DNA of 5,867 nt. Origin: a virus. Every line of letters starts with the position of its first letter. The stretch's first letter is position 1. The translations under genes and the position numbers were made by a program. The stretch lies in UHGV virus genome UHGV-0285353; one strand, given 5' to 3'. This document shows, piece by piece, positions 1 through 5,867 of the stretch. The notes beneath the pieces are model-generated. The model was not told the DNA's origin. It searched no databases and saw only the letters and a list, made by a program, of their open reading frames with translations.

Positions 1-885
1 GGGATTTGCTTGAGGTACGGCTTGCCCTTGCGCAGTATTTGAAGTCGGAATAGCTTGAGAATTGTTAAGTTGTTGAGTTACGTCAGTTGCAGGAACAATC
101 TGTCTTTGTTCATCTTCAAGTGCAGTATCAGCAACAGATGACACGTATGCTTTTCCGTCCGCTTTATTAGCAACCGCATCACTAATAACCTGTGATGCTA
201 CAGCATCGTAAGGTAAGTATTTTTCTTCTTTATTAGGTTGAGCAGATGGATTATATGCAGGATTTAAGACACGTATATAACTCCAGTTGAAAGTCTCATT
301 AGCATCAGTCGCTGAGCGCTTAATAACACATTTTGCATCTCTCATACCCGTCTCATCAGTCGCCCAAGAATACGGAGTTACTGAAACAAGTATCCAGCCA
401 TTACCCTGCGCATTTCTCGTACATTGATCATTAGCAGCAGCGGAATTTGAAGAAAAGTATTTAGTAACTCCAAATGCACCTGTTTGATAATAGTATTTAA
501 CAGATGGATCTTTTGGATTTGACGGATCACCAACAACAAAATACTTAACACGATTGTTCGCAGGATCCATTACGTAATCAACAGAACCAATCAAAGCTTT
601 AATAGCTAAATCAACTGCCAAAACAGCACCAGTTCTAACAATCATTTTGCTAACTTGAGTAGCTGTTGGTGTAATTGCAGCAGTTCCCGTGGCTGCATAG
701 TTTTTACCATTTAAAACTACGTTTTTAGCCCCGTCATAGAATGTGGTTGCACCTTGTACAAGTCGTTTAGTTACAGACCAACCTTCACCCGCAACAGTAG
801 TCGCGTTTGCTGCCTGTAAAAAAATGAAGTTAGGCGCAAGAGCAACCAGTAACGAGAGCAAAAATATATTTATTCTGTGGATCAT
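1..885 (-). CDS. pIII-like minor coat/adsorption protein, N-terminal 295 codons. The ORF runs off the window start.
   Basis: ATG at 885..883 preceded by AGGAAATAACT (RBS AGGA). The N-terminus MIHRINIFLLSLLVALAPNFIFLQA/ANAT looks like a signal peptide. A long Gly/Thr/Ala/Pro-rich open frame continues to base 1 without a stop. Its position, downstream of pVIII, is as in Ff phages. Confidence 0.6.
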   Translation of the reverse strand, partial: MIHRINIFLLSLLVALAPNFIFLQAANATTVAGEGWSVTKRLVQGATTFYDGAKNVVLNGKNYAATGTAAITPTATQVSKMIVRTGAVLAVDLAIKALIGSVDYVMDPANNRVKYFVVGDPSNPKDPSVKYYYQTGAFGVTKYFSSNSAAANDQCTRNAQGNGWILVSVTPYSWATDETGMRDAKCVIKRSATDANETFNWSYIRVLNPAYNPSAQPNKEEKYLPYDAVASQVISDAVANKADGKAYVSSVADTALEDEQRQIVPATDVTQQLNNSQAIPTSNTAQGQAVPQANP

Positions 886-2101: not shown

Positions 2102-3308
2102 TCCCGCGATAAGTCATGAAATCAATTTCATGACTTTCCAATGTATCGATTTCTTTTTGTATTAATAAACTCAAATTATATTCAGCAGATCCAGAACCAA
2201 AGCAGCCATTTTTATAATCATCTTCAAGCCAAACCAAATATTCATGACGCTTCTGGTACTTCTTAAGAATATCAAAAACAATCTTTTCAACTTCAGTAAG
2301 CAGGATACTAGTTAACTCGGTTTCTTCAGCTAGTTCTTCATCTGACTTTTCAGCAATATCTAAATCAGCCTTAGCACCACGTGACCAAACTAACTGACGC
2401 TGACCTTTAAAGGTCAAAGCAAACTCTTGAAATAATTTTGAAGATAATTTTCCATGTATTTCAACATCTTCAACAGAAAGCTGAAGTAAATCAAATGCAG
2501 AAAAAGAATCGCCACGACCCTTTTTAATATGTCCCTTGGTTAATTCGTTCTCAATACCCCATTTCGAAACGTACTTATCTGCATAAGTACCATCTCTTAA
2601 ATCTAAACCATGCTCATTAGGCATTGGTAAACCAGATTTAACACAAGCAGCTTGCCATGCTCTTAATAGTTCACAAGTGAAAGTTGATTCAAGTTGAATG
2701 GATAAATCATTGTTTTCACAAAATAAAAGTATATGAAAATGAGGATGCCAACCATTAGAACCAAAAGTTACTTCAAAAGAACGAACCATGTGAACACGAC
2801 CCAAAAGAGCCAAAGTTTCACGACCTAAACGACCCTCAAAAAATCTTTTTAAGGCAGCACGCTGAGCATAAATCATGCCTTTTAAATATGTATCTGAAGA
2901 GTGCGGATTAGTAAGGGTTAATAGCCTAAGCACGCCACCTCTATTTTTCCATTCAGCACATGCTTTTTTTAATTCTTCTCTACGTTTTTCAGTAACTTGC
3001 TTTGCACAGACAGGACATGACCAGATAGAACCGCAACGCTGAACGTTAGCCCAATGAGCCTTTTGGCGTTCTTCATTGAACATAACAGAGCGTTTCTTTT
3101 CTTTATCGATACGTTTCTTTAAACAGTTAGTTACTCTTTCAGTAGGTAATAATTTAGATGCCTGATCCTGAAGAATATAATCGTGAAGTCTCTCAAACCC
3201 TTTGTTTTCAAGCTTGGCATGAGATTTCGTAAATATACCAAGGGCGGATTTTTTTTGACTTAATCCTAGATCCATATGATAATAGTCCCGTGTGTTAGCA
3301 GTACACAA
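2094..3308 (-). CDS. Rolling-circle replication initiator (HUH endonuclease superfamily Rep, functionally pII/RstA-equivalent). The true start is probably the ATG at 3275 (393 aa) rather than the TTG at 3308.
   Basis: Three RCR motifs in the canonical order: motif I VLRLLTLTNP, motif II GWHPHFHILLF (His-hydrophobic-His), motif III YADKYVSKWG (two-tyrosine Y-x-x-K-Y). An upstream Cys cluster CGSIWSCPVCA follows a zinc-ribbon pattern. The ORF is 404 aa and in the same orientation as the structural genes. Confidence 0.9.
   Translation of the reverse strand: MCTANTRDYYHMDLGLSQKKSALGIFTKSHAKLENKGFERLHDYILQDQASKLLPTERVTNCLKKRIDKEKKRSVMFNEERQKAHWANVQRCGSIWSCPVCAKQVTEKRREELKKACAEWKNRGGVLRLLTLTNPHSSDTYLKGMIYAQRAALKRFFEGRLGRETLALLGRVHMVRSFEVTFGSNGWHPHFHILLFCENNDLSIQLESTFTCELLRAWQAACVKSGLPMPNEHGLDLRDGTYADKYVSKWGIENELTKGHIKKGRGDSFSAFDLLQLSVEDVEIHGKLSSKLFQEFALTFKGQRQLVWSRGAKADLDIAEKSDEELAEETELTSILLTEVEKIVFDILKKYQKRHEYLVWLEDDYKNGCFGSGSAEYNLSLLIQKEIDTLESHEIDFMTYRGII
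2111..2136. repeat. Perfect 11-bp inverted repeat hairpin (AAGTCATGAAA tcaa TTTCATGACTT) inside the last codons of Rep, just past the stop of the convergent 62-aa ORF.
   Basis: Seen directly. The position suggests either a bidirectional terminator for the convergent transcripts or an origin/structural element. Confidence 0.5.
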
Positions 3309-3314
3309 AGTTTC

Positions 3315-3346
3315 AAAAAAGGACCGTCGGCAAACGGTCCTTTTTT
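3315..3346. terminator. Bidirectional rho-independent terminator between the RHH gene and Rep.
   Basis: AAAAAA GGACCGT cggcaa ACGGTCC TTTTTT. A 7-bp GC-rich stem is flanked by an A6 run and a T6 run, so either strand gives a hairpin plus U-run. It sits 12 nt past the RHH stop. Confidence 0.7.
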
Positions 3347-3358
3347 CTTCCCCAAATT

Positions 3359-3556
3359 TTAAGTGTTGTCTTTTTGTCTTGTTGTCATATTAGCATTTTT
3401 AGAATTATTAAATAAATCCTGCTGTGAGAAGCGCTTCACATAATCACGCATATATTTTCTTAATTCTTGAGATGCTGTTGAATCCTGTGATTTACAACAA
3501 GAAATAAAAGCTTCTTTCAATTCCTGATCAACTCGAATTGGTAGATTAGATAGCAT
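3359..3556 (-). CDS. 65-aa ribbon-helix-helix (CopG/Arc/MetJ-like) DNA-binding protein, a candidate autorepressor or early regulator. The 85-aa ORF in the track is shortened here to the internal ATG.
   Basis: GGAG RBS 8 nt upstream of ATG 3556..3554. The sequence MLSNLPIRVDQELKEAFISCCKSQDSTASQELRKYMRDYV fits beta-strand, helix A, S-x-S turn, helix B as in Arc/CopG (compare GRSVNSEIYQRVMESF). Palindromic operators lie immediately upstream. Confidence 0.6.
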   Translation of the reverse strand: MLSNLPIRVDQELKEAFISCCKSQDSTASQELRKYMRDYVKRFSQQDLFNNSKNANMTTRQKDNT

Positions 3557-3572
3557 AATGGTGACTCCTATT

Positions 3573-3611
3573 TGTATATACACAGTATATACACAATAAA
3601 TAGGATGTAAA
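3573..3611 (-). promoter_or_regulatory. Candidate sigma70-type promoter for the RHH gene, overlapped by two palindromic operator sites (TGTATATACA at 3573-3582; GTATATAC at 3585-3592) whose centres are 11 bp apart.
   Basis: On the minus strand: -35 TTTACA (plus strand 3606-3611), a 16-bp spacer, -10 TATACT (plus strand 3584-3589). The palindromes are read directly and cover the -10 and the predicted start site, a classic autoregulatory RHH arrangement. Confidence 0.5.
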
Positions 3612-3625
3612 TACATTATTTGATT

Positions 3626-3817
3626 TTAATCATTATCCCAATGTTTATGTCCATGTGCCTTCCCCCTTCCTTCTTCGCCTCGTCCTCGTCCCTCGTCCTC
3701 GTTGTCGTCGTCAGGTAAAGGCACTAAATCAAGCATAGCGCTTCGAGTGTAATAAAAACTTAAAGCTATAAAAAATAAAGTAAAAAATATAAGACCAAAA
3801 ATCTGCCAAAAAGACAT
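3626..3817 (-). CDS. 63-aa predicted single-pass membrane protein with a low-complexity acidic/Gly-Arg/His tail. First ORF after the intergenic region. Function unknown.
   Basis: N-terminal hydrophobic helix FWQIFGLIFFTLFFIALSFYY. The tail DDDNEDEGRGRGEEGRGKAHGHKHWDND is encoded by a GC-rich polypurine tract that is atypical for this genome. GGGGG lies 4 nt upstream of the ATG. A T-rich or low-complexity artefact cannot be excluded. Confidence 0.4.
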   Translation of the reverse strand: MSFWQIFGLIFFTLFFIALSFYYTRSAMLDLVPLPDDDNEDEGRGRGEEGRGKAHGHKHWDND

Positions 3818-3834
3818 AATACCCCCGAGTCAAA

Positions 3835-3921
3835 GTGTCTAGACTACGCCTTGAGACACTCAAAAAACACGTTAAATCAATTTTTATACACGGTGTGTCT
3901 CAATTCCCCTGAAGACACTTC
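3835..3921. promoter_or_regulatory. Intergenic region between pI/Zot and the early genes carrying alternating GTGTCT/AGACAC motifs and inverted repeats. Candidate origin, packaging signal or early promoter region.
   Basis: GTCTAGAC palindrome (3837-3844). The 9-bp inverted repeat TTGAGACAC (3851-3859) / GTGTCTCAA (3895-3903). Imperfect palindromes TTGAGacaCTCAA (3851-3863) and GAAGacaCTTC (3911-3921). The hexamer AGACAC or its complement occurs four times within about 85 bp. Confidence 0.4.
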
Positions 3922-3977
3922 TCTGTTAATTCCACGTTACATCAAATAGACGGTTTTTGTAATCAAAGAGAAGAAAT

Positions 3978-5153
3978 TTAAATTAAGCCTTGAGCTTTGG
4001 CAGACTGATATTTAGCAATAAATTCAGCATCATATTCTTGAGTCTGGGGCTGGTTAGTGAATTGCTGTACTTGCTGAGGTTGATTACTAAAACCCTGAGC
4101 TTGCTGCTTAAAATAGTTATATGGACGGTCATTGTTTTCAATTAGTTTTCTACAGTCTGATTGACTTACATCACGCAAAATTGTTCCCTGCTCAGTGTAT
4201 GCAACATATCGGGAACCCTTCTTCATACAACCAGAAAACACAGGCTTTGACGTAATCTCATAGCTAATTTGACTAGTATCAACATCATAAGGCTTATTTG
4301 GATTGTACTTAACAGAAATAGACTGCATGTCATTCTGTGTTTTCATTAGGTTTTCCTGATCTCTCTTAGCTTTGTATTCAGGGTCTAAACCTTCCTTACA
4401 CATCTCAGCAGACCAACCGAGTTGTTTTACACATTCATCTACCTTCTTTTGCAACGGATCGGCAGCTTTAGGAATCTCTGCTTTAATTGTTTTAGGCTCT
4501 TCTTTTTGCGAATCTTGTTGCTTTATATAGAAATAGCCAAATGCACCTATTGCAAGAATTAGCATCCAAATCCCTTGTACCATTTTTGCAGGCAATTTAA
4601 TTTTGCCATGAGTATCAGCACCACCTTTTGACGAGGTATACATGCTGAATAAATGTTTTGGGTACGTGAATGTACCAGTATCTTCTGCATCTGCTTTTAC
4701 TGACTTAGTATTCGGGTTCAACTGGTGATACTTCCATAACCACCAAGTTGCCATTTTCATACCCATTGGACGATGCAAGTGATAATGCATCCCAACCATG
4801 TCTAAAACGTCTGCATTCAACAAACGTGGGGCTTGAGTAATGAAAATAATATCCAAGAACTCAGCATGTCTATGCGTCTGTAAAAACTCTACTTCTGGAT
4901 GGTTTTCATTCTTAACCGGATGCTTATATTTTTTTGAAAAGTGGCTGATCTTTTGAGCTTCATCAATCACAACTAAAGATCGTGCCGGATAGTCTTCAAA
5001 ACTAGACTTTAAAGGTTGTGCAGTGTCTAGTTTTAACCCTTCAATATTTGAGAATATATTCCAAGGCTCTGCCTCATTTGCACGTGCAAATATCTCTTTG
5101 ACAGCCCATAAAGTTTTCCCCGAGCCAGGCGTGGCAGTAATTAAATAAATCAT
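3978..5153 (-). CDS. zot: pI/Zot-like filamentous phage assembly ATPase (391 aa).
   Basis: N-terminal Walker A TATPGSGKT and Walker B LVVIDEAQ. A central TM helix GIWMLILAIGAFGYFYI is followed by a C-terminal domain with Cys residues and a Q-rich tail. The AGGA RBS overlaps the upstream stop. Position is after pVI, as in Ff/CTX-phi. Confidence 0.9.
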   Translation of the reverse strand: MIYLITATPGSGKTLWAVKEIFARANEAEPWNIFSNIEGLKLDTAQPLKSSFEDYPARSLVVIDEAQKISHFSKKYKHPVKNENHPEVEFLQTHRHAEFLDIIFITQAPRLLNADVLDMVGMHYHLHRPMGMKMATWWLWKYHQLNPNTKSVKADAEDTGTFTYPKHLFSMYTSSKGGADTHGKIKLPAKMVQGIWMLILAIGAFGYFYIKQQDSQKEEPKTIKAEIPKAADPLQKKVDECVKQLGWSAEMCKEGLDPEYKAKRDQENLMKTQNDMQSISVKYNPNKPYDVDTSQISYEITSKPVFSGCMKKGSRYVAYTEQGTILRDVSQSDCRKLIENNDRPYNYFKQQAQGFSNQPQQVQQFTNQPQTQEYDAEFIAKYQSAKAQGLI

Positions 5154-5164
5154 TATTTTTTATC

Positions 5165-5440
5165 CTAATTCTTCGAAAGTGCAAGTGAAGAACTTGCAAT
5201 AATTGCTCTAGCAATAAATGCCGAAAAAATAATTGAAACGCATTTATCTAGACCAGCTACCCCAACAAGACCAGCTAGATTTCCGACCGCAAAAAAGTCA
5301 GACATAAAGCGATCTAATAAATAATTTACGACCGTTAAAACAATCGTAGAAGACACCAGAGAAATTCCCGCACCTGCTAGTAAACGTCTAAGAAAACCCG
5401 AAGCAAGAATTTCACCTATAAACTTGAATAAATTACCCAC
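5165..5440 (-). CDS. pVI-like minor coat protein (91 aa, GTG start).
   Basis: AGGAG RBS 9 nt upstream of GTG 5440..5438. The protein is highly hydrophobic and multi-TM. The start overlaps the pIII stop, and the gene lies between pIII and pI as in Ff phages. Confidence 0.6.
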   Translation of the reverse strand: MGNLFKFIGEILASGFLRRLLAGAGISLVSSTIVLTVVNYLLDRFMSDFFAVGNLAGLVGVAGLDKCVSIIFSAFIARAIIASSSLALSKN

Positions 5441-5867
5441 CTTTAGCTGCTCCTATAACGATATAAGCTGCATAGATGTACGAACATGCAATCAATGCAG
5501 GTTTAGCCAATTCAAGGATTGAGCAGACAGGTTGAAGGCTTAAAGAAAATGATGTTGTAACACCAAGCACACTAATGGTTTGAGGCTCAGGCGTAGGACA
5601 TTTATCGTCTACAGAAAATCTATTTGCATTGAATACAGAGAAATCAAAAGTACGTTTATCTTCCGTATCAATCTTTGTTTCATCTGCTGTGTAAGGCTTG
5701 GTTTCTCTATTAAGCCAGTCATCCCACTTCTGGAACTTCTCAACGAATAACTTAGGGAAATTAATTGCAGCATTCGCAGCTTGACAGACAGTCGGTGCCC
5801 ACTCACAGAACACTGGAAAGTTAATTGTTATGTCAGTCGGTGGCGCTTTAGGTGCTGTAGGATCATC
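5433..5867 (-). CDS. pIII-like adsorption protein, C-terminal 144 codons. The ORF continues beyond the window end, so the 5433..5813 track ORF is only the GTG-anchored tail of a longer frame.
   Basis: The frame is open from base 5867 to stop 5435..5433. It contains a Pro-rich linker DDPTAPKAPPTD, a Cys-containing domain, and a C-terminal membrane anchor LIACSYIYAAYIVIGAAKGG typical of pIII. It is in the same frame as the 1..885 fragment if the sequence is circular. Confidence 0.6.
   Translation of the reverse strand, partial: DDPTAPKAPPTDITINFPVFCEWAPTVCQAANAAINFPKLFVEKFQKWDDWLNRETKPYTADETKIDTEDKRTFDFSVFNANRFSVDDKCPTPEPQTISVLGVTTSFSLSLQPVCSILELAKPALIACSYIYAAYIVIGAAKGG

Follow-up and report, generated by a model that had tools for sequence, protein, structure and literature searches.

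Gene content of the locus

The window analysed in this work is the UHGV virus genome UHGV-0285353, a stretch of 5867 bases that constitutes the whole circular genome of a small filamentous phage (inovirus) of Acinetobacter baumannii, in which almost all genes lie on the minus strand. The element under study is a 63-codon open reading frame (ORF) of the minus strand at 3626-3817, here named ORF63, which an original prediction had read either as the gene of a small membrane protein with one transmembrane (TM) helix or as a DNA-level element that happens to be open in one frame. The ORF and its translation were recovered exactly as quoted there. At NCBI the protein is recorded as WP_057694190.1, 'hypothetical protein' (A. 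baumannii), and the replication protein of the same phage as 'Rep63'. The exact ORF63 is present in eight near-identical contigs of ~5.85 kb, found in three A. baumannii NCBI assemblies and five sequencing runs, and the tract that encodes its tail is known in three haplotypes, namely the window, L045 (Logan SRR11582156) and L047 (SRR30209014). The features that define the ORF and its start are the following.

3626..3817, minus strand: ORF63, probable chimeric small membrane-protein gene, 63 amino acids (aa), ATG start
3822..3826, minus strand: ribosome-binding site GGGGG, 4 nt 5' of the ATG at 3817-3815
3749..3811, minus strand: predicted TM helix, residues 3-23, with a Kyte-Doolittle 19-residue maximum of 2.11 at residues 3-21
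3704..3817, minus strand: codons 1-38, probably homologous to a family of 42-43-aa TM ORFs (MQFSDWV...QQDDDQYIP)
3833..3920, minus strand: double-hairpin spacer, two ~60-nt units each with a GTGTCT..AGACAC hairpin, directly 5' of ORF63 and 3' of zot

A first-gene slot behind the hairpin spacer

ORF63 starts 25-29 nt past hairpin 2 of the post-zot spacer, as do the members of the 42-43-aa family. In all relatives that share the spacer, the same start context, GTCTAGACACTTTGAC-GGGKGG-TAT-ATG, follows hairpin 2 whichever ORF begins there, and this conserved ribosome-binding site and ATG open the first gene in ~25 related loci. The content of the slot is variable. In most loci a zinc-finger-like gene stands directly at the conserved ATG; in L048, L049, L050 and L054 a 42-43-aa ORF comes first and the zinc-finger gene follows; in L065-L069 the slot is occupied by a 74-aa acidic soluble ORF (MTKQVFEYLEEK...), which begins ~25 nt past hairpin 2 and overlaps the zinc-finger start (ATGTGATATG); and in the window, L045 and L047 it is occupied by ORF63 or by its 58-codon form, ORF58. 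Since the slot is without a membrane ORF in most relatives, the gene is optional. The zinc-finger-like protein (70-76 aa, CxxC-x11-HxxxH, phrog_10717, no Pfam family) is conserved in ~25 Acinetobacter inovirus loci, and its gene either adjoins the hairpin spacer or is separated from it by a single small cassette gene (L045 307-519; L047 1757-1969; L011 2135-2362); the window retains only remnants of it, at 3626-3654. The spacer itself recurs in three PLSDB 'plasmid' records and in phages whose Rep belongs to different families (Rep_1, Phage_CRI), and it could be a candidate packaging signal, attP site or operator.

The first 38 codons of ORF63 are probably a divergent copy, in colinear order, of the 42-43-aa ORFs, represented by L048 7743-7871 in an A. 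oleivorans prophage and by L054 (IMG/VR UViG_2657245161_000001). BLASTP aligned residues 9-39 with residues 9-39 (31 ungapped residues, E=0.048), and hhalign against the family profile gave an ungapped alignment of 38 columns (query 1-38, template 2-39 of 43; E=1e-4, probability 56%). In addition to the ribosome-binding site and ATG after hairpin 2, both have an N-terminal M-x-F-S/W, a single TM helix and a basic flank, and D30, L31 and D36-D38 of ORF63 stand at the same positions as in the family, whose ORFs adjoin the zinc-finger-like gene downstream. A common architecture of one hydrophobic helix followed by basic and then acidic residues is displayed by ORF63, ORF58 and the 42-43-aa members. 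Purifying selection on the termini is strong within the family (omega 0.08, synonymous divergence (dS) 0.59), and the helix core changes freely. Unlike these ORFs, ORF63 and ORF58 carry a repeat-derived tail of 20-25 residues, so that of the family C-terminus QQDDDQYIP only DDD is kept and QYIP and its stop are replaced by the tract; their TM core is only ~29% identical; and the frame of ORF58 overlaps the next gene in L045 and L047, while that of ORF63 is fused to the last five codons of that gene.

Composition and origin of the tract

The tail of ORF63 is encoded by a tract in which the following features were located.

3654..3712, minus strand: T-free tract (A-free on the plus strand) encoding DDDNEDEGRGRGEEGRGKA(H), at the junction of the TM-ORF homology and the zinc-finger-gene homology
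3678..3702, minus strand: perfect 13-nt tandem duplication, coding strand ACGAGGACGAGGG / ACGAGGACGAGGC, with a +1 frame shift from DEDE to GRGRG
3658..3676, minus strand: longest unbroken purine run (19 nt), GAAGAAGGAAGGGGGAAGG, which the zinc-finger gene of the sister genomes has as its ribosome-binding region
3643..3644, minus strand: junction of a 184-nt deletion, L045 318-501 being missing from the window, with 2-nt AA microhomology
3626..3643, minus strand: HWDND and stop, the last five codons and stop of the zinc-finger-like gene (phrog_10717)
3616..3654, minus strand: remnant of the zinc-finger gene start, ATG GAC ATA AAC..., a 12-codon stub (MDINIGIMIKIK, then stop)

This tract had been described as almost pure pyrimidine on the plus strand, as GC-rich and out of character for the genome, as having G at intervals of 3-6 nt and as (CCTCGT)n-like, and these descriptions hold to different degrees. 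What is exceptional is its strand asymmetry. The A-free run of the plus strand extends for 59 nt (3654-3712), against 27 nt for the second longest in the window, and in first-order Markov shuffles the longest A- or T-free run had a mean of 25 and a maximum of 43 nt, a run of at least 59 nt appearing in 0 of 3000; the 55-nt stretch from 3658 is 85.5% pyrimidine on the plus strand, which was reached by 1 of 3000 shuffles. Its GC content is only mildly unusual, for the 62.5% of the tract contrasts with 37.6% in the genome but an equally GC-rich 55-nt window occurred in 210 of 3000 shuffles (7%). Plus-strand G residues stand at 3677, 3682, 3688, 3695, 3701, 3704, 3707 and 3710, with spacings of 3-7 nt that come close to those described, and Tandem Repeats Finder reported CCTCGT x4.0 with one indel, an array that can equally be read as a 13-nt unit x1.9 with 100% match (3678-3702).

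On the coding strand the hexamer reads GAC-GAG (D-E) and, past the extra G, GGA-CGA (G-R); therefore, 'DEDEGRGRG' is one nucleotide repeat in two frames. All 19 codons of the tract avoid T, which has P=10^-5.9 given the peptide and the codon preferences of the phage (GAT 77%, GGT 58%, CGT/AGA, AAT 69%). Because such avoidance is improbable given the peptide, the nucleotide pattern is primary and the peptide secondary. A T-free stretch holds no stop codon in any frame, and the openness of the ORF through the tract is uninformative. Low-complexity tails that arise by in-gene tandem duplication or hexanucleotide slippage offer a parallel, as here (GACGAG)n, or a 13-nt unit x2, is read in two frames as DEDE and then GRGRG; the difference is that 13 nt is not a multiple of three, so that one frame is split into two instead of being merely lengthened.

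The two sister genomes are informative about how the tail came about. In L045 and L047 the same ORF ends ...KAHGHK (58 aa) and overlaps a 70-aa ORF that starts at an ATG just past the tract (GAAGGAAGGGGGAAGGCAC-ATG) and ends ...HMQQHWDND. The original prediction had envisaged that homologous phages might keep the tract and break the frame; both genomes keep the tract together with the frame, up to ...GHK. The similarity to the 42-43-aa ORF ends at DDD (GAC GAC GAC) and that to the zinc-finger gene resumes at ...AAT AAA ACC CCC (N-K-T-P), and the tract exactly fills the gap between them, where it replaces QYIP and its stop, the inter-gene spacer and the first eight zinc-finger codons. When one 13-nt copy is removed from L045 or L047, a continuous 120-aa ORF results that comprises the TM helix, a linker DLVPLPDDDNEDEAKKEGGRH and the zinc-finger protein. 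In the window, the 184 nt that code for the core of the phrog_10717 protein (CxxC-x11-HxxxH) are gone and both ends of its gene are left: HWDND with its stop at one, and at the other the ATG and opening codons of the stub. As 184 equals 3x61+1, the loss brings the frame of ORF58 into register with the final five zinc-finger codons, so that the HWDND of ORF63 is borrowed.

A history in three steps, which the comparison of these genomes makes highly probable, can be proposed. In a first step, a purine-rich filler would have joined the membrane ORF, just past DDD, to the 5' end of the zinc-finger-like gene. In a second, a perfect 13-nt tandem duplication in the filler would have shifted the frame, with the result that the membrane ORF reads GRGRGEEGRGKAHGHK and stops, and the zinc-finger gene would have restarted at an internal ATG with the 3' end of the tract as its ribosome-binding site, which is the state of L045 and L047. 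In a third, confined to the window lineage, the 184-nt deletion would have eliminated the zinc-finger gene and left HWDND as the new end of the membrane ORF. That HWDND comes from the neighbouring gene through this deletion, and that GRGRGEEGRGKAHGHK is a frameshifted read from the 13-nt duplication, had escaped the original prediction. Comparison of the relatives shows the slot with its start site, both the duplication and the deletion, and the lack of the tract in other genomes. The tract is a product of ordinary accessory-gene turnover and no phage-wide DNA signal. 

ORF63 as a probable accessory membrane-protein gene

We consider the full account fairly likely, that is, that ORF63 is a chimeric, lineage-restricted accessory membrane-protein gene whose tail would be the record of a fusion, an out-of-frame duplication and a deletion; our confidence that its protein is functional is lower than that in the rearrangement history. 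ORF63 is open in all three haplotypes, and omega on the TM codons of ORF58/63 is 0.32, compared to 0.23 in the neighbouring zinc-finger gene, the helix being still hydrophobic across 18% nucleotide divergence. Because the conserved start site is found together with the open frame, the omega value and a colinear family of probable homologues, ORF63 is probably a real, fast-evolving and optional gene of a small single-pass membrane protein, in agreement with what had been proposed for it. R25 directly follows the helix and basic residues follow it in all family members, which points to a predicted N-out/C-in topology. The protein would therefore insert into the inner membrane with its acidic tail in the cytoplasm, and it may serve as a dispensable, host-directed accessory factor.

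Several points weigh against this account. In neutral simulations with 16 substitutions, 46% of the frames stayed open and 15% stayed both open and hydrophobic, which makes an open TM frame alone weak evidence, and the L047 copy of the ORF was missed by the gene caller. The scores for likeness to the 42-43-aa family are marginal, part of the case being synteny, and the loss of QYIP may have left the chimera non-functional. Comparative power is small, as there are only three tract haplotypes and the eight copies are identical, and the order in which fusion came first and duplication second would rest on one perfect repeat. No source for the ~45-nt filler emerged from BLASTN against phages and plasmids or from a pattern scan of IMG/VR: the region 3300-4000 had no match among phages and matched plasmids in the hairpin spacer only, and the exact tract pattern gave 0 matches in IMG/VR.

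Homologues were sought in ~15 billion proteins, by a word-indexed search over 5.8 billion clusters and an exhaustive HMMER scan over 1.84 billion representatives, in which ORF63 was an orphan except for its 58-aa sister form (P0001). A further HMMER match, P0002, was rejected as spurious, being a eukaryotic tandem repeat (LVPLPEDD x17). Nothing over cut-off was found in Pfam, NCBIfam, PHROGs or PADLOC, the sub-threshold matches from Pfam/NCBIfam being FixQ with 14 bits (cut-off 29) and puhA with 11 bits (cut-off 200). Exact-protein look-ups via the gene of the downstream ribbon-helix-helix (RHH) protein gave no further tract haplotypes, and a contig search with the RHH protein gave one match, an irrelevant cyanobacterial locus. 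Antisense ORFs of the plus strand were noted at 3620-3718 and 3655-3738, and no supporting evidence was seen for them.

The tract as a possible nucleic acid element

A different explanation for the tract is that it acts mainly as a cis-acting nucleic acid element, at the level of the mRNA or of the packaged single strand, which has the same sense, and that the open frame is incidental. It could take the form of a G.A-mismatch hairpin or a weak two-tetrad G-quadruplex (G4) that regulates the downstream gene, or of a local priming or packaging feature. We regard this explanation as unlikely. The hairpin in question is the following.

3655..3724, minus strand: predicted hairpin, GUGCCUUU.CCU with AGG..GAAGGCAC, in which (GACGAG)n gives C-G pairs split by tandem G.A mismatches

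In its favour, L045 and L047 diverge by 18.4% over TM codons 1-29 and by 2.2% over codons 30-58, the corresponding values being 10.5% for the spacer, 11.3% for the remainder of the zinc-finger gene and 1.1% for the RHH block. In codons 30-58 dS is 0.05, compared to 0.45 and 0.31 in the flanks, that is, 6-8x lower, and 1 of 19 synonymous sites has changed in the tract against 16 of 57 in the flanks (binomial p ~0.016, our estimate). This conserved synonymous island runs from the 5' arm of the predicted hairpin to just past the AUG that the hairpin would occlude; the 3' arm of the hairpin covers this AUG together with the ribosome-binding site of the zinc-finger gene that formerly lay downstream. 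A segment of ~100 nt around the tract folds as RNA at ~-21 kcal/mol (z = -3.9 to -4.2, 0 of 200 shuffles being as stable) and as DNA at z = -4.1, and the two known substitutions both fit the hairpin, one turning a G.U into an A-U pair in the stem and the other falling in the apical loop. The avoidance of T, left unexplained by the peptide, and the stop-proof character of a T-free stretch, owing to which openness there means nothing, also speak for such an element.

On the other hand, RNA folding of the entire ORF region gave no significant stability (z=+0.59), and chance alone would produce about one 8-bp stem with a 52-nt loop in a region this long. The low dS would also be explained by a recent recombination patch in this mosaic genome, since the RHH block is likewise 99% identical. 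G4 potential is weak, with GG runs plus one G3 and one G5, no four runs of at least three G and a G4Hunter maximum of 1.32; several two-tetrad G4 motifs occur in the tract, but the ViennaRNA G-quadruplex fold uses none of them. The tract had also been called H-DNA-prone, a candidate that was rejected because it is interrupted every 3-7 nt, with a longest pure purine run of 19 nt and a 13-nt mirror (GGAAGGGGGAAGG). Rfam had no match in the region, its sole match in the window lying elsewhere and being a chance snoRNA (E=0.41).

The distribution of the tract is relevant to one form of this explanation. L011 and L012, whose Rep is 99% identical and whose zot and accessory region are different, have neither the tract nor the ORF nor the spacer, and L046, L048 and L051-L072, which share the spacer and zot module, lack the tract; in loci that share zot and the spacer, no T-free run exceeds 23 nt within 420 nt 5' of the zinc-finger gene. 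As every relative that shares Rep or the zot, pIII and spacer modules is without the tract, it was ruled out as an origin or as a packaging or replication signal of the family. Of the DNA-level element first proposed, what stands is that nucleotide processes made the tract and that it contains an island of conserved synonymous sites; its role as a packaging or replication signal does not stand, for the close relatives are without it.

Translational coupling between overlapping genes is known in filamentous phages, as from gene V to gene VII of f1. In L045 and L047 the upstream ORF, ORF58, stops 12 nt past the downstream AUG, and the downstream ribosome-binding site and start codon lie in the predicted stem. 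We hypothesize that in these sister genomes the hairpin would hide the zinc-finger start until ribosomes translating the membrane ORF open it, a role that would be orphaned in the window with the zinc-finger gene gone. Unlike that of f1, the coupling here is a prediction, and the downstream gene is missing from the window. A recent patch of recombination, the genome being very mosaic, would fit the same data. It is doubtful that the T-free (GACGAG)n tract is a functional device, whether a G.A-mismatch hairpin that gates zinc-finger translation on translation of the membrane ORF or a switch based on 13-nt copy number or +1 frameshifting. If true, this idea would account for the near-frozen synonymous sites among all known carriers, and a local hairpin with coupling would represent a small, tractable case of newly evolved translational control.

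It is also rather improbable that there is no functional gene at all and that ORF63 is decaying debris, open because T-rich codons give hydrophobic residues and a T-free tract is stop-proof. Its orphan status, with P0002 spurious as the only other match, the frame kept by 46% of neutral simulations and a slot that is empty in most relatives are as expected for debris, as are a tail that is a frameshifted read with a borrowed C-terminus and a region that tolerates damage such as the deletion of the neighbouring gene. Debris, however, would hardly use the conserved ribosome-binding site and ATG, keep an omega of 0.32 and a hydrophobic helix despite 18% nucleotide divergence, or have a positional homologue family with strongly conserved termini; moreover, the deletion form occurs in the three NCBI assemblies and five sequencing runs and therefore belongs to a circulating, viable phage. 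Finally, it is most improbable that the 13-nt repeat switches between a free zinc-finger protein and a membrane-anchored TM-linker-zinc-finger fusion by copy gain or loss or by +1 ribosomal frameshifting on rare CGA and AGG codons, since the uninterrupted 120-aa fusion that one copy fewer gives in L045 and L047, the abundance in the tract of rare Arg codons (CGA usage 0.10, AGG 0.03) with an internal Shine-Dalgarno-like sequence, and the synonymous-site conservation that dual-frame use would account for are outweighed by the exactly two copies in all three haplotypes, with no one- or three-copy variant found, by the poor slippage substrate that two 13-mer copies make, by a prior of 1 in 3 for the frame match and by the complete loss of the zinc-finger gene in the window.

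An accessory membrane-protein gene with a composite tail leaves the current understanding of inovirus biology unchanged. It provides a worked example of how three ordinary mutations give a foreign-looking tract in a tiny phage genome, and a caution against calling such tracts signals or domains. It also defines, behind a conserved hairpin spacer of A. baumannii filamentous phages, a variable first-gene slot. At least three small accessory genes occur in it as alternatives, and each might have an effect on host pili, membranes or reinfection. The characterisation of these phages has only recently begun, and their host is clinically important (PMC11209303, PMC12285184). What novelty remains concerns the tract, whose conservation is unexplained, and the possible coupling role of the hairpin.

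Transcription context and comparison with PfsE

ORF63 had been taken for the first ORF of a putative early operon. A promoter-like element was located as follows.

3574..3611, minus strand: promoter-like TTTACA-16-TATACT (3611-3584) overlapping a TGTGTATATAC x2 palindrome, 3' of ORF63 and 5' of the RHH gene (3556-3359)

This sigma-70-like promoter with its palindromic operator probably reflects autoregulated control of the RHH-Rep unit. The ORF and the zinc-finger gene travel with the zot/spacer module even where the Rep family is another one (Phage_CRI in the L048 prophage). Because the promoter lies downstream of ORF63 and the ORF travels with the zot/spacer module, ORF63 is not the first gene of the RHH-Rep 'early' unit. 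The RHH promoter and palindrome are kept in L011 and L012, although everything upstream differs.

A function like that of PfsE had likewise been suggested. PfsE of the Pseudomonas phage Pf4 is a protein of 30 aa with a conserved YxWGW at residues 16-20 that exerts superinfection exclusion through PilC (PMC8764522). Like it, ORF63 would be a very small hydrophobic accessory protein of an inovirus that is not needed for virion structure, which makes a functional analogy plausible. In contrast to PfsE, ORF63 has 63 aa, no YxWGW, no detectable similarity and another genomic position, and PHROGs, PADLOC, Pfam and NCBIfam gave no match, so that the suggestion amounts to an analogy. Superinfection exclusion would be one possible, though unlikely, role for ORF63.

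Genome organisation and other elements of the window

The remaining genes of the window, in their order, are as follows.

885..1 + 5867..5433, minus strand: TspB-like adsorption protein (pIII), 439 aa, an ORF that closes across the window ends
5153-3978, minus strand: Zot/pI, after a DUF2523 pVI-like protein and followed by the 63-codon ORF (3817-3626)
3556-3359, minus strand: RHH protein
3275-2094, minus strand: Rep_1-type rolling-circle Rep
After Rep: a small plus-strand ORF, a gene-V-like ORF, a 64-aa ORF and the major coat protein

The nearest deposited phage is Acinetobacter phage M02, and the common sequence is only part of pIII. Mosaicism among the relatives is strong. L011 and L012 have a Rep 99% identical to that of the window, while zot (354 aa vs 391 aa) and the entire accessory region differ, and between the window and L047 blocks of ~100% identity (RHH, 5' end of Rep) alternate with blocks of 40-85%. 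L048 (A. oleivorans GCA_037152625.1, JBBCLZ010000001.1) is a chromosomal inovirus followed by a partial second copy with an HTH_3 repressor, a Phage_CRI Rep and a 106-aa ORF; this tandem arrangement resembles RS1 of CTXphi and suggests XerCD/dif-type tandem integration. Several relatives carry another small TM ORF (MTKHDAHV.KFKMQFFPI..., 45-49 aa) 3' of the zinc-finger gene or of zot (L011 2463-2603; L012 188-328; L015 3043-3192; L046 1711-1848), which the window does not have.

Three further elements were noted near the replication module. Between the RHH gene and Rep, at ~3322-3350, there is a perfect GC-rich hairpin, GGACCGT-TTGCCG-ACGGTCC, with A6/T6 flanks, which is kept in L011; it looks like a terminator or an origin hairpin, and the terminator scan gave no flag there. 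The other two are sets of iteron-like direct repeats, ATGTTGTC x3 at 1825-1849, between the gene-V-like ORF and the plus-strand orf62, and TGTTGTCT x3 at 3364-3386, in the 3' end of the RHH gene. Both sets adjoin the replication module and may be candidate binding sites for Rep or for a regulator.

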